Origin: Octopus vulgaris
Taxonomy: Eukaryota
Assembly: GCA_951406725.2 (NCBI GenBank)
Contig: OX597826.1
Coordinates: forward strand, 9,858,001-9,922,000
Length of the DNA stretch: 64,000 nt
Direction: 5' to 3'
Shown: in pieces, positions 1,316 through 56,364 of the stretch
Position numbering within the stretch: position 1 is the stretch's first letter
Layout of the letters: every line of letters starts with the position of its first letter
Made by a program: the position numbers and the translations under genes
The notes under the pieces: model-generated
Seen by the model: only the letters and a program-made list of their open reading frames with translations
The model's database searches: none
What the model was told of the DNA's origin: nothing

Positions 1316-2660
1316 AATTCAACAGGCAATAACAGAAGAATTCAACCGGCAATAACAGAGGAATTCAAGACGGGTTGATCCTGGGAGCTCCTCTATGTTG
1401 ATGACCTGGCCCTCATAGCAGAATCACTACCGGAACTAGAAAAGAAATTTCGGGTGTGGAAGCTAGGTTTAGAATCAAAAGGCCTTAGAGTCAATGTAGC
1501 AAACACCAAAGTCCTAGTAAGTAGGAAGCCAAACACACCACACACTGCTTCAGGTAGGTGGCCCTGCTCGATCTGAAGAAAAGGTGTAGGTAGAAATTCC
1601 ATAAGATATACCCAGTGTAAGCTATGAACACATAAGAGGTGCAGCACCATCAAAGGGAAATTAACCGAGAAGATAGCTTTTGTGTGCAACAGATGCACAG
1701 GGGCAATAGATACCATGGAAATTCAGAAAACAGATTCCATTACACTCCTGGGGGAGAAACTAGAAGTAGTTGATAGTTTCCGCTACCTAGGTGACCAAGT
1801 TAGTAGTGGGGGTGGATGCTCAGAGAGTGTCACCACTAGAATATGAATAGCCTGGGCAAAGTTTAGAAAACTCCTACCCCTACTGGTGACAAAGGGTCTC
1901 TCATTCAGAGTGAAAGGTAGATTGTATGACGCATGTGTGCGAACTGCTATGCTTCATGGTAGTGAAACATGGGCTGTGACTGCAGAGGACATGCGTAGGC
2001 TTGAAAGAAATGAAGTTAGCATGATCTGCTGGATGTGTAATGTCAGTGTGCACACACAACAGAGTGTAAGTGCCCTGAGAGAAATGCTGGACATAAGAAG
2101 CATTGGATGTGGCGTGCAAGAGAGACGTCTGCGATGGTATGGTCATATACTACGGATGGGTGAGGAGAGATGTGTGAAGAAGTGCCACTCCCATATAGTT
2201 GAAGGAATCCGGGGTAGAGGTAGACCCAGGAAGACATGGAATGAGGTGGTCAAACATGACCTTCGAACGTTGGGTCTCACAGAGGCAATGACAGAGGACC
2301 AAGACCTCTGGAGATATACTGTGACAATGAAGATCTGACAAATAAAGTGAGTTCATGGCTGTTTCCTGCACCAACTTCACATAACCAGCCCCAGCCCTTC
2401 CAAAGTGCCTTGGATCGTAGGGTGACCTGCTGTGCTTGAGGAGACCTATTGAGTCAAGTATGTCAGCATCAAAAATCAAATGGAAATTGTGGTTGCGATA
2501 CCTGTGCAGGTGGCATGTAAAATGCACCATCCGTACGTGGCCGATGCCAGCCTACCCTGGCACGTAAGAAGCACCATCCGTATGTGGCCGATGCCAGCGC
2601 CGCCTTGACTGGCTTCTGTGCCGGTAGCATGTAAAAAGCACCAACCGATATACCAGCTCA
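1316..2660 (+). mobile_element. 5'-truncated RTE-clade LINE: RT C-terminal half plus 3' UTR, pseudogenised
   Basis: Translates to ..WELLYVDDLAL.., DSFRYLG, LHGSETW, RRLRWYGH, RGRGRPRKTW; several in-frame stops; ORF ends 2338; 3' UTR has repeats of ggcacgtaaaaagcacc. Confidence 0.92.
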
Positions 2661-3075
2661 GGCAGTGAACTGGCAAAAATGTTAGCACACCAGGCGAAAT
2701 GCCGAGCGGTATTTCGTCTGCCGCTATGTTCTGAGTTCAAATTCCGCCGAGGTCAACTTTGCCTTTCATCCTTTCAGGGCTGATTAAATAAGTACCAGTT
2801 ATGCACCGGGGTCTATATAATCGACTTAATCCGTTTGTCTGTCCTTGTTTGTCCCTTCTGTGTTTAGCCCCTTGTGGGTAGTAAAGAAATAGGTATTTCG
2901 TCTATCTCTACGTTCTGAGTTCAAATTCCGCCGAGGTCAACTTTGCCTTTCATCCTTTCGGGGTTGATTAAGTAAGTACCAGTTATGCACTGGGGTTGAT
3001 ATAATCGGCTTAATCCATTTGTCTGTCCTTGTTTGTCCTCTCTGTGTTTAGCCCCTTGTGGGTAGTAAAGAAATG
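2661..3075 (+). mobile_element. SINE family C with 184-bp tandem duplication of its body
   Basis: B-box-like gagttcaaattcc; the unit ggtatttcgtct...gtaaagaaat starts at 2708 and again at 2892; homologous to 7235-7462 and 54890-55102. Confidence 0.85.
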
Positions 3076-3099
3076 GATATACCAACTCCAGCATTTGAT

Positions 3100-3580
3100 C
3101 CTCAGAGGAAGAGAAGTTGGTAAAGAAGCCAAAGTCATTATCTTCAATTCAGTTTTCAAGTCTAAATTTCATGAATGTTGGATAATAACCAAATGGGGAC
3201 GATTGTGAATCCAAGCAGCCGAAATGAGGTTCATCCAAAAGATCTACCTGACAAGGTGTGTAACTCAGGAATCAGGGAGTCTCTCCAGGTTCAGCCACAA
3301 CTTCTCTACAGTGAGAGGTCATCACTCCAGTACTATGGACATATGATTACAACATCACAGGAGGAATCATAAAATGCATTCTTCAAGCCCAGATATTCAG
3401 GAGGAAACCTTGGAGTGGACCCAGAATGAGGTGGTTGGGTAATATCCATGGTCTCAGTTGATTACTCTGAGAAACCAGCTGGAAAGTACTTTTGATTGGA
3501 CCCTATGGAGGAGGTCCCTGAAGACTCTTGTGCCGGGACTTTGCCAGGAATAGTGGATGGACAAGATGGATGAATGAATG
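3100..3580 (+). mobile_element. Old RTE-type LINE 3' fragment
   Basis: Degenerate IQAAEMRF..DKVCNSGIRESLQVQP..LQYYGHM, typical of the RTE post-RT region. Confidence 0.7.
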
Positions 3581-3758
3581 ACAGACTATCAAAGACCTAA
3601 TTGATCAAAAACATAATGTAAAGGTAAATATTTGTTTAATGTTTAATCTCGAAAGACAATGGGAATTGCCCAGAAAATTATAATCATGTGAACAATTAAC
3701 TCAGAATAACAATTTGGATAATAGTTGTAATGTCTATGTAAATACAGAGCAGCACCAG

Positions 3759-4025
3759 CTGGTTAGGGCAGCGGACTCGCGGTCAGAGGATCACGGTTTC
3801 GATTCCCAGACTGGGCGCTGTGTATGTTTATTGAGCGTAAACACCTAAAGCTCCACGAGGCTCCGGCAGAGGATGGTGGCGACCCCTGTTGTACTCTTTC
3901 GTTCCAACTTTCTCTCACTCTTTCTTCCTGTTTCTTATCCCCGACTTCCTACGCAAAGGACCGCATTTCGGACTTCTCCCAATAATGGGACGAAGACCGC
4001 TTCGCTCAACAAACAAACAAGCAGC
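3759..4025 (+). mobile_element. SINE family A (tRNA-Arg-like head), tail type b
   Basis: tggttagggcagcggactcgcggtc..gtttcgattccc (TCG anticodon loop); tail shared with 40165-40458. Confidence 0.85.
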
Positions 4026-5071
4026 AGTGAAACTTTTTAAAGAGTCTTGTGTGTGAACAGAGATGGAGCTCACTCAGAATGTTGTTGTTGTTGCAGATTG
4101 TCTGACATGGTGTTGCAAATACCTCTGGACATTCTGAACAAAGCTGAAATAGTGCTGGCATGGCTGTGTAGTTAAGAAGCTCACTTTGCAATCACACAGT
4201 TTCAGGTTCAGTCTCTGTGAGCAGCACCTTAGGCAAGTAACCCTGGGCCAGCCAATGCCTTGTGAGTGAACTTGGTAGATGGCTCAGATATAAGGACAAG
4301 CTGAAGAGTAATCTCTCAGCAGTCAATATAGCTCACAACACCTTTGAGCAGACGGCCTTGGGACAAACAAAATGGTGTAAGGGACTTTGTTTCAACTGGT
4401 ATTAACAGGCAAAGGGGTGCAAGGCAAAGGAAAAAAATGGCTGCAATCATACCGGACTGCACTGACCCATAATCTTCATGCTTGCAACATCTGTGGGCTT
4501 CTTTGCAAATCATTCGCGGGACTCAAATGTCACATTCGACATAAGCATTATGACTGACAAAGATAATGTAGATTGTCAGGCCCTTGTATTTCAAAATCAA
4601 CAGGGAATTCCATCATCATATATATATTTTTTTTCAGAATAGCATATCTTGAAGCACACACGTAAAGCTATAAACAATATCGTGTAAATGTTGGGTTGAG
4701 AAACACTTTGAGATAGAAAAGGTCAAAGGCTGCTCACAGAACGTATGTGTGTGTGTATGTGTATTTCTCCTCTACCTCCATAACTTGACAACTTGTATTG
4801 GTCTGTTTACATCCATAATACTTAGCAGTTGAGTGAAAGTGACTGACAGAATAAGGCTTTAATTCAATGGTTGGAACAAATGAAAGATATATAATTTTAC
4901 ATTCTGTTCCTAGTTTCATCTATTGACCAGGTTACATCTTTAAAGGTTTTAATTAATATCCACCCCTAATACTTATTGAATTCAGAGATGTAACACATCT
5001 GGAAGTAAATACTGCTTAGATAGTTTTCTTTATCCCACACCAATTGACTCACACAGGATAACAGATAGTGA

Positions 5072-5112
<41 letters not shown>

Positions 5113-5150
5113 GTACTTACATACAAGACCAAAAAGGGTACAGGCGCCGC

Positions 5151-5181
<31 letters not shown>

Positions 5182-5302
5182 GTAAAAAAATACAAACTGG
5201 GACAAGAACGCAAAACATTTAGAAGACGATACAAATAACACGGACGGGACATTCGAAGCTTTCAATCTTCAGTCAAGAACCGGATCATCCTCGCAATTTC
5301 GG

Positions 5303-5338
<36 letters not shown>

Positions 5339-5342
<4 letters not shown>

Positions 5343-5893
5343 GTTCTCCGGAAAGTTTGTGCCGATTTATTTCGACTTATTTTAGAACATGGTTGAGTCC
5401 ATAAAATAGGATTTGACTACACCTCCATTTAGAGCACAGTTTAAGCTATCTGTTCGTGGAAGAAGATTTATGTTCTTATAACCTGTGTTAATTCTGTAAC
5501 CCTTTAAAATGGAAGATAAGAAAGTTCATTTTCAGCACTTGATGCTTTGGGAACCAGACAAAAATTGCTGCAGCTCGGCTGGGATGTGTTACCCCACCTT
5601 CCATATTAACCAGATATTACTCCTTCGGATTTCCACTTATTCAGGTCTCTGCAGAATAGTCATAATGGTAAAAATTTCAATTCCTCGGATGACATAAAAA
5701 GATACCTTGATGAATTCTTTGCCATGAAACCACCTCAATTCTGGGAAGAGGGTATTTTCAAGTCAAAGGAAAGATGGAAACGCATTGTGCAACAAAATGG
5801 TTCATATTTGGTTGATTAAAAATGTAATGGCAAGTATTTAATTGACCTTTTTCTTTCTTCTAAAAATCGGCACGAACTTTCCAGACAACCCAA
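5339..5893 (+). mobile_element. Internally deleted mariner transposon (555 bp)
   Basis: TIRs ttgggttctccggaaagtttgtgccgattt and aaatcggcacgaactttccagacaacccaa, TA on both sides; N-terminus MEDKKVHFQHLML fused to ..LGWDVLPHPPY*PDITPSDFHLFRSLQN..GSYLVD*. Confidence 0.92.
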
Positions 5894-5897
5894 TATA

Positions 5898-5931
<34 letters not shown>

Positions 5932-6808
5932 GGCACAGGTGTAGCTGTGTGGTAAGAAGTTGCTTCCCAACCACATAGTTTGGGGTTCAGTCACACTGTG
6001 TGGCACCTTGGTGAGTGTCTTCTGAGTGGATTCAGTTAACAGAAACTGAAAGAAGCCCTCGCCATGATAGATCACTAGCCACTGAACCTTTTTCTGTTTT
6101 CTCTCCCTGTTTATTTCTGTGTTCCTTTTTGTCAAAGAGTGTAGGCTCGAAACATAAAAGGCTTTCTCACTTTCCGAGCATTGAACTTGTACATCTGTTT
6201 GTTGTTTACACACACCCATCTTCATCTTTTGATTTTTTTTGTAAATTCTCACTATATATATATATGCATGTGTGTGTGTGTGTTGTGTTTCTGCATTAAA
6301 TGTAGAAGTGGTGACAATACAGGCACCTCATCAGACTTGCTAGCCAGAAGCACACAATGTCTTTACTAATGGAGGTAAAAACACAGTCTTGGTCAGTTTG
6401 GAGTGAAAAAAAAAACATTCTGAGGGAAAAGAGCTGCCTTCTCTTGAGTAATTTTAGCTGTCCAAAAGGAATCGGTTTGTGTACATTTTTTCATTCCCTA
6501 GTCTGCCAATGGCCCGGCAAGACCACGTTTCCAAAAATTTTCTGTCATGAAAGTTTTTTTCACCACCAAACTGACCAACACTGTATTTTTATCTCCACTA
6601 GCAAAGTGGCCATGTGCTTCCGGTCAGCATTTCTGATGAGTCTCCTATTTGCATTACTAAAGGAACAGCCTTCTGATCAGAGGGGATTTTAGTCTTCTTA
6701 CTTAGCCAGCAGATGGCATCATTCGAAAACTATGGCAGTGTGAAGTGCATTGTCACTAGCGATGTATAACAAAATCCTATAATCTGGTTGATATTGTGAT
6801 ATATATAT

Positions 6809-7107
6809 GTGGAGGTGCAATGGCCCAGTGGTTAGGGCACCAGACTCGCGGTCATAGGATTGCGGTTTCGAATCCCAGACCGGGCGTTGTGAGTGTTTAT
6901 TGAGCGCAAACACCTAAACTTCCACAAGGCTCCCGCAGGGGGTGGTGGGGATCCCTGCTCTACTCTTTCGCCACAACTTTCTCTCACTCTTTCTTCTGTT
7001 GGCCTGCTCGCTTAACAAGTGGGGTGGCGTCATTTGAAGGCTAAAACAATGTGAAGCGCATTGTGACCAGCGATGTGTAGCAACATCTGATAGCCTGGTC
7101 GGTCACG
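6809..7107 (+). mobile_element. SINE family A, tail type a
   Basis: Full tRNA-like head with A/B boxes; tail homologous to 52551-52830. Confidence 0.88.
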
Positions 7108-11445: not shown

Positions 11446-11502
<57 letters not shown>

Positions 11503-11534
11503 TATATATACATATATATACACCTATATATACA

Positions 11535-11586
<52 letters not shown>

Positions 11587-11594
11587 CACACACA
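10345..11594. repeat. ~1.25-kb compound (TA)n microsatellite with recurring GCATG spacers
   Basis: Directly visible; source of the YI-repeat pseudo-ORFs. Confidence 0.97.
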
Positions 11595-12395
11595 TTATCG
11601 AACCTCTGGCAGCATATTTAATATCAGGCGCTTTGCTGCAAAAACAAAGGTATTTACCTCTATCATGAGAGACCTTTTGTATGCAGATGATTGTGAGCTA
11701 GTAGCACACACAGAGATTGATATGCAACACATTTTGAATGCATTCTCCGATGCTTGCACTGCCTTAGGATTGACAGTCAATCTCAAGAAAACTGTTGTCA
11801 TGCATCAACCTGCCCCTGGTAAGCAGTATAGTGTACCAAATATCTATGTGTATGGTAAACGACTTGATGTAGTCGATCAGTTTGTCTTACATGGGAAGCA
11901 CTAGTAATAGGTGTAGCAATTTGGATGATGAAATTCCATATAGAATTAGGAAATCAAGTGTTGCTTTCGGAAGGCTAAAAATGCTCCTCTGGAGTCGGCG
12001 AGACATATGCAGAAAGAGAAAGATAAAGGTGTACAAGGCATGTGTGCTCCCTTCTCTTCTCTATGCCTGTGAGACGTGGGTCACATATCGATACCACCTT
12101 AAACAACTGGAATGTTTCCATCAGATGTGTCTCAGACGGATCTATGGCATTAAGTGGAAGGACCACATCAGTGATCTTGAAATATTGGAAGGCTCTCGGT
12201 GTGAAAGTATAGAAGCTCTTGTGTTAAAGCAAAGGCTCAGATGGAGTGGTCATCTGGTCAGAATGAAGGATTCAAGGATGCCAAAACAACTCTTTTATGG
12301 GGATTTAGCTAAAGGAGAACAACCTCCACATAAACCAAAAAAGAGGTATAAGGACTTGCTGAAGGCTTCCTTAAGAGATGCTTGCATCTCTCTTG
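11595..12395 (+). mobile_element. RTE-clade (BovB-like) LINE RT fragment embedded in TA arrays
   Basis: [32 protein letters not shown]; one frameshift near 11885; then LLYACETW..QRLRWSGHLVRMKDSRMPKQLFYGDL. Confidence 0.93.
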
Positions 12396-12650
<255 letters not shown>

Positions 12651-26248: not shown

Positions 26249-28588
26249 TCAAAGATTTGAAGGTGCTGTGCCTTGGTTGCTGCTAACAATAAGATCAAGC
26301 ATATATTCAAGGTGCTCAGAAGATATCTGATGAAAAACTTCCTGGTGAAATGGGACGTTGGGTAGCAACACTTTGAGAAAGGTCATTGTCTTTTGCTGCA
26401 AGGATAAGAGACACTTCTCTGGTGACTTACACAAACTTACTTTCATGTCCAGCAACATGGCTTGACCCTGTAAGGTCTTAACGTTTATTTTATCCACACT
26501 GGTATTGTCTGCACCCATGGAACATAAAGAAGTGGGTAATGATGATGATGACGATGAAGACGACGAAGAAGATGATGATGATGATAATAATAATGATGAA
26601 GATGACAGAGGTAATGAAGTTTTATCGGATGACACTGGTTTACCTGTCTCCACCAGAGAAATTGCTTCACTGATTAAAACGTCCACATCCTCTGAGTCAG
26701 TTCGAATGGACTCCAGAAATGGATACAGTTTTGGAAATAATACTGAAAACAGCAAATGTAACTTGTTACGCAGTGAGATTAGTCTTAATGTATTCTGAAC
26801 AAAAGGTTGGGAGTTACCAGGCAACTTATAAGCACACGACCGTGATCGCCGCCGCCTCTTTTTCTCTGGTGACGAAGACATACAGCACGGACACATTCGC
26901 CTTCGCCGTATCCGAGGACCTTCCTGTTCGCAGTTGGTAAAATAGTTATAGGTATAAGACGGTCGTTTATTGGCCTTGCGTCGTGTCTCTTGCACTTTAG
27001 TAATTTTGTTTACGTGTTCTAGGGGGTCAACACTGCTGTTGCTGCCACTGCTAAAGGCAGAGTCTTCAGAAAAACAACCCTGATGGGAGTTCTTGTCATA
27101 AGAATTACCAACAGGGTCGCTGTCTAACTCGGATTTAAGCGTTTCAGAGTACATACTATGCTTTAAGCAATCAATGGACTGGTCAGCCAAGTTGACACAG
27201 ATCTTAGAGTCTGTTGAATTTGCTACCTTCTCTTGATGCAATAAAAGGCTACCTGTGGTGGTCTTTGGACATTTTTTACTAGGGTCAACTGAGGATTCAC
27301 TGGAGGTAATGTCATGTTTTTCATTCGCAACAGAAGTGTTTAGACGGTTTTTTACAGACTCTGAGTTCTTAAACAGAGAGAAAATATTTTTTTCTTCGGT
27401 CTTCCAATGAACATCACCAGATTGTTGTCTTTCAGGAATGCGATGTTCATTTTCAGAAATGGAATTATTATTATTATTAGTATTGGTGCTAGAAGATTTT
27501 TTAGAACAAGAATCAGGAATAATTAAGTTTTCAGGTAGTTGACCGTGTTGACATTTATCAGAACCTGGCTTGAAAACATCGCACAATCGCACGTTTTTCA
27601 GGATGCGACGTTCCCCAGTGGGTCCAGTGGACACAGGACATTCAAGAGGTTTACGCCAAAAGCGAACATACTTTCGCCTAACAAGGCTGCAGGCAAGCTG
27701 TAGTGACTTACCATTTGCTGAGTTGAGGTTTTCTGCAGATATAGAGTGTGTTGAGTTATCGTTACATTCATCATGGCTAACTTCCACGGAAGAATGGTCT
27801 TCCTCCATGTGTCCATTTAGTAATTTTTCTTTCAGTGTATTGTCAAGTAGGCTGTCGCTGGACTGCGTCACAGAGAAAGGAGTGGGCGATTGTTCAGGTG
27901 AGTCAGCAGAATACACAAACAACTTCCGTTTAAATTCAGTGCTTGGGGACTTTTTCAACTGGGAGTATTTTTTAACAACTCGTTTACAAGTCAATTGTTT
28001 GGGTGAGGTCTTACAGGGCACACGGGTCAGTTTCTTGTGTATGCCCTCTGATAGTTGCCACTCATCAAAACACTCGCTAAGACGTTTGATACAGACAGTG
28101 GGACGGGCAGAGTTTAGGACACTATTAAAAGGCCCCCGGATGGTAGAGGTTTCAACAGCCATCACTGATAAAGGAGATCTGTCAGAATTATGGCCACATA
28201 CAGACTCCTTCAAAGCACAGCTAACATGTCGGCTAACTTCAGCAGTTAAAGAGTAAACATCATATCGAAGGTGTTCTCCAGATCTTTGTAATTTCGTTAT
28301 CCAAATTGTAAGATACTGCACAGGACTATACAGAACCCGAAGGATCAGGTGTTCATGTGCAATACCATGTAGATATTGCACAAGATTGTAGAAAGATGAA
28401 CAATTTTGTAATGATTCGTTTGAGTTTGTAACTGGAACCAATAATGCTGCCACTTGTGCAAGCCAGTGGAAACATGGCAAGAGGAATTCATCAATAACAG
28501 AAGACAGATAAGCGAAATGGCAACAAGAGTGTTGAGAAAGTCGTTTACAAGGCCATAAAGAGAAATGTTTTACACTTTGAATAGTCAT
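26249..28588 (-). CDS. Uncharacterised ~779-aa protein; CDS in one large terminal exon; Ser/Asn low-complexity middle, basic NLS-like clusters, duplicated C-terminal helical motif
   Basis: 2.34-kb stop-free non-repetitive ORF. In-frame TGA at 28601-28603 closes the frame upstream, so the first ATG is 28588 (the track's TTG at 28600 is unlikely). Strong acceptor (polyT..ttttcag) just upstream, exon starts 28616. Basic clusters RIRRRRMCPCC and KKRRRRSR. A later strong-context ATG at 28162 is an alternative start. Confidence 0.85.
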   Translation of the reverse strand: MTIQSVKHFSLWPCKRLSQHSCCHFAYLSSVIDEFLLPCFHWLAQVAALLVPVTNSNESLQNCSSFYNLVQYLHGIAHEHLILRVLYSPVQYLTIWITKLQRSGEHLRYDVYSLTAEVSRHVSCALKESVCGHNSDRSPLSVMAVETSTIRGPFNSVLNSARPTVCIKRLSECFDEWQLSEGIHKKLTRVPCKTSPKQLTCKRVVKKYSQLKKSPSTEFKRKLFVYSADSPEQSPTPFSVTQSSDSLLDNTLKEKLLNGHMEEDHSSVEVSHDECNDNSTHSISAENLNSANGKSLQLACSLVRRKYVRFWRKPLECPVSTGPTGERRILKNVRLCDVFKPGSDKCQHGQLPENLIIPDSCSKKSSSTNTNNNNNSISENEHRIPERQQSGDVHWKTEEKNIFSLFKNSESVKNRLNTSVANEKHDITSSESSVDPSKKCPKTTTGSLLLHQEKVANSTDSKICVNLADQSIDCLKHSMYSETLKSELDSDPVGNSYDKNSHQGCFSEDSAFSSGSNSSVDPLEHVNKITKVQETRRKANKRPSYTYNYFTNCEQEGPRIRRRRMCPCCMSSSPEKKRRRRSRSCAYKLPGNSQPFVQNTLRLISLRNKLHLLFSVLFPKLYPFLESIRTDSEDVDVLISEAISLVETGKPVSSDKTSLPLSSSSLLLSSSSSSSSSSSSSSSLPTSLCSMGADNTSVDKINVKTLQGQAMLLDMKVSLCKSPEKCLLSLQQKTMTFLKVLLPNVPFHQEVFHQISSEHLEYMLDLIVSSNQGTAPSNL

Positions 28589-28793
28589 ATGAAGATGCAA
28601 TCATGTCTAAAATGACCTGAAAATAGAAAAAAAAAAGAAGAATGTAAAACAGCAATAGCAATGGAAAATAAAAAACTTTATTTAGCAAACTAAATAAAGC
28701 TTAAACAAAATCAACAATTTTTTTGTCATGGAAAAGAAAACTGTGCAAATTGATGTTCTTCCACCTTAGTATGTTATAGCTTACTTTCTGCAC

Positions 28794-53574: not shown

Positions 53575-54506
53575 ATTCCTCTCTCCTTGCCATGACATCA
53601 TGTGATAATTGTAAATGAGTAACCCTTTGCAATTAGTGTCCTTCATATCTAATCTTTTGTGAAAAATGTCCCTGGACATTGAGGACTATCGCCTTACTTA
53701 GAAACATGCAAAGGTTGATAACAGGAAGGGCATCCAGCCATAACAAAATCCACCTCAACAAATTCTGCCTCCCCCCCCCCCCCCGTGTGAGCATGGAAAT
53801 ATGGAGATGATGATGATGGTGATGGTGATTGTGAATACTAGAAACATAATCATGAACGTGACCTTTCTCCCAGTAAACGAAATCCATTCTGATTCAGTAA
53901 ATAAATTACAATAACTGCTTTACGGTAGGATGTAGTCTTAAACACTGGTTATCCAGCTGTAGTTAATAATCTCAATGATTGCTGCTGCACCTCAAATACA
54001 GGATTAGAAATTTCACAGTGATTTTCTCTCTGAAGCACCAGGCCCTGTTTTTTGTAAGTGGGAGGGAGAGAATATTGATTTCTCACACTGGTGCAAAGCT
54101 GAAGGTTTACAGAGGTGAGGTGATGGGGGTGTAGCCAATTAAAATGGCTCAAGTGCTTGATTCGAGTTATTTTATCAATCCTGAAACACAGAAGAACAAG
54201 TCTAGGTACTGAAAAGCACTTAGTTTGCACAACTGTTCCTGCCAACTGTCAGTCACGTTAATAATAAACATGATGATGATTACCGAGATTGGCACAAAGC
54301 CATACATTTGTGGAGAAGTAGTGGGGGTGGGGAGAACAGAGATGTGGTCAATCTAATCAATGCAAGTACTTGATTGGCATTTAATCATGGAAGGATCAAA
54401 CCAATGAACTAGTTTCTATGAAGTTGTTAGACCTGCAGCCAAACTCCTTTAAATCACACCCTGCTGTTTTAAAAATAGCCTAATTAGACAATGTTAATTG
54501 AAGGGT

Positions 54507-54729
54507 CATCATCATCATCATCGTTTAACGTCCGTTTTCCATGCTAGCATGGGTTGGACGGTTCAACTGGGGTCTGGGAAGCCCGAAGGCTGCACCAGGC
54601 CAGTCAGATCTGGCAGAGTTTCTACAGCTGGATGCCCTTCTTAATGCCAACCACTCCGTGAGTGTAGTGGGTGCTTTTTATGTGCCACCGGCACAGGTGC
54701 CAGACGAGGCTGGCAAACGGCCACGCTCA
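54507..54729 (-). mobile_element. RTE-associated 3' end
   Basis: Homologous to 13849-14070. Confidence 0.8.
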
Positions 54730-54769
54730 GTCAATACATTTGAGTATCAAATATATGAGGGAAAACGTT

Positions 54770-54815
54770 GACAGTGACTTCGAAGTCTCACCACTGTTGG
54801 CATCATCAGATTGTC
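54770..54815 (-). ncRNA. Degenerate minimal type I hammerhead ribozyme motif (Penelope-like), one arm of an old palindrome 54758-54866
   Basis: Minus strand GACAAT-CTGATGA-T-GCCA-acag-TGGT-GAGA-CTTCGAAG-TC-ACTGTC; the second arm carries an independently decayed copy. Confidence 0.65.
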
Positions 54816-54889
54816 TGATGAAGTCAACGAATAGCAAAACTTCAAAGTTACTATCAACCCTTCCCTTGTAATAATATATTAGATAGTGA

Positions 54890-55102
54890 AGGTGGTGATC
54901 TGGCAGAAACGTTAGCACACTGGGCGAAATGCTAAGCAGTATTTCGTCTGTCTTTATGTTCAGAGTTCAAATTCCACCGAGGTCGACTTTGCCTTTCATC
55001 CTTTCAGGGTCAATAAATTAAGTACCAGTTGCATGCTGGGGTCGATCTAATCGACTGGACCGCCACAAAAAAATTTGGGGCCTTGTGCCTACAGTAGAAA
55101 AG
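54890..55102 (+). mobile_element. SINE family C
   Basis: Homologous to 2661-2830 with a different 3' end. Confidence 0.85.
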
Positions 55103-56364
55103 AATATATTAAATACTGAAGTGTTTGATATACCATACTTGAACAGAGATGGGATGGTCATAGCTGGAGTAACTCTGATCATTCGTCTGTCTCATCAATC
55201 AGGACTAACCCAGGACTAAATAAGAAGAACCAAGAAAGGATAGAAAACACAGCTGAGCCTGGCAGAAATTGAAATCACAATGTAAAGGAGTATACAATAG
55301 AGCATTTGTGGTCACCTTGAGACAAATGACAAACAGTGAGGCTTAGTATCAACATAACAAAACCCTTTTAGCAAACCCTGCAGAAAAATTTATCAACTGA
55401 ATGACCTAATGCAATATATTCTATGGATGATCAAATGCTAATGTTATATAAATTCTTAATTCTTTGATTAGTCCCCATACCAATTCCTACCGAACAGAAG
55501 TCTACAATCAAAGGCTATATACAAAAGGATCATTCTGACTTTGTTTCAGAGATAATGCTTCCTTCTCTTTATAAGCTTGTAAGGTCTGAACTGGAGATTT
55601 AGTGTCTATTTCTAACTGGTTGGACCATCCTGTAGAGGCCCCTCTCCCACTATCACGAACTGTTGCATTATAGCTTAATTTCCTTAATTACATATTTATT
55701 ATGCTGAATGCCTGCAGAAGAGGGAGAGGGCTTCCAGAATGTTTAAGTGGGTGTAGTTAGAAATTTACATTACACATCTCTATGAATTTCTTTCTCACTC
55801 CACACACCGAAAATATTCCAATGCAATAGTTACAATTATAGTTCCACATCATATTTCAAACCTTGTGCCTTTGGTAAAAAGGATTATTATTATTGTTGTT
55901 GTTAATGTAGTGATTTATGCGTTAAGTTAAATAATTAGATTTCACTATACTAACTACTGAAAACATTAGTAATATACAAAATAGATTTTAAAAATTCCTA
56001 TAAAAAAAAATTAAACCAGGGTTCCTAAAAGGGAAATAGAATATATGACCAGGGCTGCAAGGAATGGAAGGGGAGAAAGATTTACCATAATTGAAACGAA
56101 AAAAATGTTATTGAAAGGCCCATGTTGCTACGTACAAACAAATCATTTGAATTAGTTGGCAAAGAAGAAACTGGTTTAGTCTTTTATATTTGTATCTGAG
56201 AAAAGATTTGCAAAACTGCAGAAATAAATATTGCTGCTTAAAAACCAGGTCAGTCTAAATCAAATAAGCTTTTGATGATGACATTCCAGCTGTGACCATT
56301 CCAAATATTTTTAGTGTCCAATAGGTCCTTCCATTTTTTTGATGATGGTTGGTTGGGAGAGCTA

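Follow-up and report, generated by a model that had tools for sequence, protein, structure and literature searches.

Two decayed hammerhead-bearing ends lie head to head at positions 54727 to 54876 of a 64,000-nucleotide stretch of Octopus vulgaris DNA, hereafter the window (contig OX597826.1, G000:C13:9858001-9922000). With a probability of roughly 0.7, we read them as a dead-end stub of a Penelope-like element (PLE) made from two joined cDNAs. The palindrome belongs to a dispersed family with the architecture of a hammerhead ribozyme, and a young relative in this family has an intact parent of the Hydra clade. One arm is long and the other short, and the junctions pile up at the outer end of helix I of the hammerhead. 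The initial annotation of this DNA overlooked both the recurrence of junctions at this centre and the unequal length of the arms.

The palindrome and its surroundings

We re-read the sequence and found the letters of both arms as first quoted, together with the imperfect inverted repeat that they form, whose centre is position 54812 (54811-54813 in the initial annotation). The extent first given, 54758..54866, is too short: about 54727 is reached by the minus arm and, on the other side, about 54876 by the plus arm. The long arm (54727..54811, minus strand) is the decayed 3' end of a pseudo-LTR (pLTR), comprising the hammerhead and part of the tail downstream of it; it matches the profile of the window-type family W at positions 530-629 (nhmmer, E 2e-6), and its tail matches locus L232. 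The short arm (54813..54876, plus strand) stops before the tail and ends near the short 3' end of the family, in AT-rich sequence.

The far end of the long arm is cut off by an abutting and unrelated high-copy repeat (54506..54725; repeat families D2-D4), which has about 55-60 matches among the fetched loci and which we take to be SINE-like. This repeat probably truncated the long arm. No target duplication can be read at the locus. To the right of the short arm lies another unrelated high-copy repeat (54889..55110, plus strand) with up to 110 matches among the fetched loci, presumably a tRNA-derived SINE from its look. Elsewhere the window contains a stop-free 783-aa frame (26249-28600, minus strand) that resembles a large host exon, and two C-terminal fragments of LINE-like reverse transcriptases (RT) on the plus strand (1847-2338 and 11446-12487), presumably of RTE type.

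The 116-nt stretch folds into a hairpin of -48.2 kcal/mol on the plus strand and -60.9 kcal/mol on the minus strand (z = -7.9 and -10.0), with none of 200 shuffles equally good. Such a strong hairpin from either strand, along with a weak miRNA-precursor score in the Rfam scan (E 0.29, far below threshold), could be taken to mean that the host has retained the locus as a functional hairpin RNA, cruciform or switchable ribozyme. We find this barely credible given that the arms agree at 39 of 57 aligned bases (68 %), that both hammerhead cores are mutated and that other repeats flank and cut the locus.

A dispersed family and its probable parent element

A BLAST search of the stretch against the 2.8-Gb genome returned 25 rows including the window, 19 of which span both arms. 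Exact searches located the intact hammerhead core at 30 loci genome-wide, the same palindrome centre motif at 28 and the tail motif at 57, while the control gave 0 in each case. The copies form three related groups that we define as W (window type), O (old) and Y (young). The window sub-lineage, W2, has 17 matches, and group O copies are about 87 % identical to their own majority. The tail measures about 95 nt in W and about 67 nt in Y, and (TA)n flanks are found in Y loci and in many old copies. Non-palindromic W and O copies run upstream into a common body with a TATA-like box. Among the copies matched by the regex, a distance of 36 nt separates this box from the core in 5/6 O copies and 1/2 W copies. 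Two W2 palindromes, L010 and L011 (G000:C8, 95.73 and 95.83 Mb), sit inside a duplicated segment of 95 % identity. Another short-palindrome family (L237, L241 and G000:C14:80151982) begins with a CUGAUGA-like box and lacks the other parts of this hammerhead.

Family Y consists of an intact-looking, recently amplified 3.35-kb unit with a 727-aa RT and GIY-YIG frame and a 1-kb 3' UTR. Intact-looking copies are found at 1759-3942 (minus strand) of L131 (G000:C1:63047800-63052600) and at 4919-7102 (plus strand) of L132 (G000:C1:64213900-64222800). At least 3578 exact Y arms are present in the genome, the element occurs in two further organisms as well, and Y tandems are composed of full 3.35-kb units only. 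The Y protein (P0001) matches 0 families in a Pfam scan; it carries the motifs RWK, DKT, CxCX5C, CxxC and CxH and is devoid of CCHH and CX2-5CxxC, in agreement with the motif list given for the Hydra clade in section 11 of PMC8557442. Among 119 homologues of this protein, RWK is present in 89, DK[TS] in 118 and CxCX5C in 114. Contigs from four presumed-RNA runs cover Y, more deeply at the tail, at a resolution that gives neither starts nor levels.

The initial annotation had proposed to look for adjacent RT/GIY-YIG frames. Such frames lie upstream of the hammerhead end in Y and in O, the latter as Hydra remnants on the same strand in four loci (L075, L078, L079 and L083); the window has none. 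A search for the W2 body gave 5 matches with no ORF. No ORF being tied directly to W2, we infer the Hydra membership of the window copy from a chain of homology in which W2 leads to the W1 tail, the W profile to the ends and body of O (E down to 2e-29), and the O loci to their Hydra remnants. An inverted endonuclease (EN) remnant is also found 80 nt from the W1 body in L204 (E 3e-9). Judged by this chain, the window sub-lineage is likely to be of the Hydra clade. The earlier proposal of a PLE relic with an inverted partial copy is supported by the family, body, tail and ORF evidence, and the stretch is very probably a PLE stub.

We rejected as parent an ORF upstream of a W body in L205 (G000:C1:27839900-27844900, minus strand), a long open frame of a separate and apparently young Neptune-like PLE (DKG, CxxC linker). 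Hydra remnants near L008, L010/L011, L096 and L212 were left uncounted, being on the wrong side or distant.

Architecture and decay of the hammerhead

Each arm represents a type I hammerhead of the PLE kind in a state of decay, with a CUGANGA box, an NUH triplet, helix I, a bulged helix II and helix III. In the minus arm (54770..54815, minus strand; established from the sequence and two alignments) CUGANGA and the palindromic helix III are intact and the triplet is GUC, while the GAAA box is altered by A14 to G. The plus-arm motif (54809..54855, plus strand) retains CUGANGA, has G12 changed to A in its GAAA box and C17 to U, giving a GUU triplet, and shows CpG decay in loop III and a broken helix II. 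Each arm has one mismatch in helix I, and the head-to-head junction (54810..54814) falls within the 5' strand of this helix. An Rfam scan yielded no hammerhead match at E<=10, and matches to a loose hammerhead pattern in the window are no more frequent than chance would give (10 compared to 5.2 +/- 3.8); the case for a hammerhead therefore rests on the family.

For helix statistics we used 30 copies chosen solely by core and helix III, a criterion of which the invariance of helix III is the result. With a 1-nt bulge, the successive pairs of helix II form in 24, 26, 23 and 24 of the 30 copies; when the bulge is removed the register breaks and 6, 23, 4 and 19 are paired. For helix I the corresponding numbers are 27, 25, 25, 23 and 21, dropping to 6 for a sixth pair. 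The whole structure is 87.5 % paired compared to 18-42 % when slid. Covariation is modest and consists mostly of transitions; at the second position of helix II, W1 and O have a G-C pair where W2 has C-G. Helix III was proposed to be self-complementary and is indeed a self-complementary 10-mer, through which two intact copies co-fold as a dimer. GAAA is intact in the 30 copies, which were selected for it, and also in the majority of 18 W copies selected by their body.

The CpG decay described in the initial annotation is borne out by counts over 17 copies, and the ancestor reconstructed there needs correction. Position 7 was C (CG 7, CA 6, TG 3, TA 1; n = 17). Helix II, drawn with 4 bp, really had 3 bp, GCC/GGC (CG 3, CA 7, TA 3, TG 1, other 3; n = 17), the fourth pair, A-U, being the consequence of CpG decay. 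Stem I, written as the 6-bp GACAGT/ACTGTC, natively has about 5 bp, and its sixth pair is supplied by the junction. We also considered ACTGTC/ACTATC as covariation and rejected it: C>T amounts to 12-15 % in all non-CpG contexts compared to 5 % for T>C, and CWG sites are not overrepresented (0.146 vs 0.122), so that this difference is ordinary decay.

Core positions 4-5 of 22 family O ends (L056-L085) read TG in 8, CA in 4, CG in 3 and otherwise in 7, which at the level of sequence is the CpG-decay pattern of a putative ancestral U4C hammerhead variant. A Y-related sub-family (L140) likewise shows C4. In the Y hammerhead of L102 (1486-1560), helix II measures 2 bp and bears a GNRA loop with an A-A mismatch as its closing pair, and helix I is lengthened to about 16 bp.

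Both G12 and A14 have roles in hammerhead cleavage. The window copy had been thought inactive, and its hammerheads are predicted to be incapable of cleavage, with core mutations in both arms and the motifs buried in the hairpin; the hammerhead folds reach -0.3 (minus) and +6.3 (plus) kcal/mol compared to -61 and -48 kcal/mol for the hairpin. Changes in the hammerhead core are described, in the available text of PMC2837043, to abolish or reduce cleavage.

Junctions and proposed formation of the stub

Arm-to-arm gaps were obtained for 20 old-family loci, 15 fetched for inspection and 5 not. The gap is 1 nt in 10 of the 20 and at most 6 nt in 14, compared to 1 locus in the control. Twelve of the 15 fetched loci are true members, all with gaps of 1-6 nt; the long-gap loci L237, L238 and L241 proved on inspection to be other sequence and were dropped. 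The window junction belongs to the 1-nt class and differs by a single transition from the junction most frequent in the old families. Centres assigned automatically in 30 tail-selected W loci were too noisy and were left unused.

Family Y contains 867 short head-to-head palindromes compared to 1646 arms that read past -19. We tabulated the first 50 of these 867, all on one contig. The furthest upstream base is -14 in 9, -16 in 18, -17 in 8, shorter in 13, -19 in 1 and -34 in 1; 48 of the 50 palindromes stop at or before -17 from the ribozyme core, with a pile-up at -14 to -17. The arms are long plus short in 46 loci, mid plus short in 3 and short plus short in 1. One arm ends at about +139 and the other at about +72, in (TA)n, in 46/50 loci, and the tail is on one end only in 46/50. 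The edge at which the junctions accumulate corresponds to the outer end of helix I, -5 in the old and -17 in the young family. An intron boundary at the Y edge was rejected, as the bases preceding the AG are retained in the junctions. At -11, G is replaced by A in 7 of the 50 junctions (L249, L250, L255, L257, L262, L267 and L271) and in 0 of 14 read-through copies, a change that may come about as the junction forms.

One exact centre recurs in many old copies, as would be expected of a palindromic non-autonomous element, MITE-like or retrozyme, that spreads by itself and multiplies as a whole. This centre is, however, common to several distinct sub-families including Y, the Y junctions vary from copy to copy, the assignment of long and short is random, non-palindromic copies with a body exist and no tandem arrays were seen. 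Such an element is largely refuted and, in our estimate, highly improbable.

We consider it probable that two cDNAs were joined. They would likely be primed from both ends of one target cut, the RT-endonuclease starting downstream of the ribozyme at a separate site for each DNA end, in which case the tail would be the distance between the two sites. Engaging the copy of the two start sites near the RNA 5' end would leave both cDNAs only 70-170 nt long. They would then run to the putative 5' end of the RNA and anneal there, their 3' ends pairing via a short motif complementary to itself (CTAG in Y, ACWGT in the old families) before priming each other. The ribozyme would be a passenger. In the case of Poseidon, the purified protein cuts both strands and uses two internal starts to extend them (PMC11167929), which by analogy fits the two-cDNA model.

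Two annealed cDNAs would result in long and short arms, a random furthest arm and loop-less centres, and their annealed ends in junction classes of equal length that differ by one base. Among the asymmetric Y loci that reach at least 16 (n = 26), the furthest arm is the short one in 15 and the long or mid one in 11. Loop-less centres at CTAG account for 9 of 50 loci, and the -14 and -16 classes have equal length with one base different.

Alternatively, one cDNA may reach the RNA end, snap back and be copied to a hairpin, after which the endonuclease would cut one end or the other back to the short form. Junction palindromes have been the basis for proposing self-priming (PMC3846280), and EN-mediated resolution was proposed for the tail (PMC8557442); the -16 junctions are readable as terminal AA pairing on a T run. 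The two arms are also concordant at one polymorphic site in all 42 callable Y loci, which fits one template or fold-back equally. A fold-back cDNA cannot give a longer second arm, so the short arm being furthest in 15/26 argues against a single cDNA: the target-attached first strand would need trimming. Loop-less centres are likewise awkward for an intramolecular fold. A single snap-back with a cap-templated C was our initial model and was demoted by the table of 50 Y junctions; we now regard snap-back as unlikely.

Under the two-cDNA reading, we lean towards the junction edge being the transcription start. The same two-armed stub could also form if the RNA were longer and its structure halted the RT at the outer end of helix I, an option that appears less likely. 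In both families the edge falls on the helix I boundary, about half of the Y arms read through, and canonical TATA spacing is absent in Y, where there is no clear TATA box 30 nt above -17 and only an initiator-like motif, all of which is consistent with such a stop. Against it, the 5' strand of helix I should be free when the RT arrives, and the 36-nt spacing from TATA to core fits a start at about -5 in the old families, the distance from TATA to start being 30-31 nt.

We hypothesize, at about even odds, that short PLE palindromes are fossil strong-stop products in which two cDNAs ran off the RNA 5' end and annealed. If true, junctions would map the transcription start of each family to the base, this start would coincide with the outer end of helix I, and head-to-head inversions would be explained with no need for an antisense template.

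Comparison with known systems

The window locus is an ordinary dead relic, and it is the family that carries significance because the way in which PLEs make head-to-head inversions is stated to be open (PMC3846280, Discussion). An intact Hydra element with 867 stubs provides a base-resolution prediction, an RNA 5' end at -17, and the Y protein is a candidate substrate for the biochemistry of two-cDNA joining. Inverted truncated PLE copies, junction palindromes, tails and TATA/Inr motifs have been published (PMC8557442; PMC3846280). The layout of the stub is already in print, while the open-access literature searched gave no account of two cDNAs being joined at the RNA 5' end.

In the available text of these two papers, endonuclease-bearing PLE insertions share with ours the head-to-head pLTR pair, a tail confined to one end, relatives that have (TA)n targets, and TATA/Inr-like motifs in the pLTR. 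The inverted 5'-truncated copy beside a pLTR is present in the window, in old-family loci and in Y loci. The octopus stubs differ in having no ORF between the arms, a tail of about 67 nt (Y) or 95 nt (W) instead of 30-40 nt, and a junction piled up at one edge, whereas the published reading is self-priming on an antisense template.

PLE hammerheads as described by Cervera and de la Pena 2014 (PMC4209133, part of the text) are likewise of type I, with an unpaired base between A9 and 10.1, a G10.1-C11.1 pair and a short palindromic helix III. Opposite-strand pairs are placed there at 100-700 bp, whereas the motifs described here overlap one another at helix I and have a helix II of 3-4 bp compared to 6-8 bp, and the window copy differs by its core mutations. 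With Hydra-clade PLEs, Y has in common the motif set, (TA)n insertion and the hammerhead, and it differs in its length of 3.35 kb compared to generally less than 3 kb and in its thousands of copies (PMC8557442, in the sections available). This likeness is direct for Y and O and probable, through homology, for the window sub-lineage.

Non-LTR retrozymes (PMC7229834; bioRxiv 10.64898/2026.07.22.740005; both in part) are similarly non-coding and PLE-related with a type I hammerhead, but they form head-to-tail arrays and circular RNA while the window holds a single head-to-head event. Head-to-tail retrozyme units of 150-450 bp were absent from the examined family loci, which hold single or head-to-head motifs, and the retrozyme family offered as an alternative by the initial annotation is unsupported because no head-to-tail arrays were seen. 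Poseidon of Anolis, studied in vitro (PMC11167929), belongs to a different clade, and the portion of that report available describes neither the joining of two cDNAs nor a 5' edge. It is alike in that its tail is set by two RT starts lying downstream of the hammerhead, in that both strands are cut and extended, and in that the ribozyme is unneeded for insertion.
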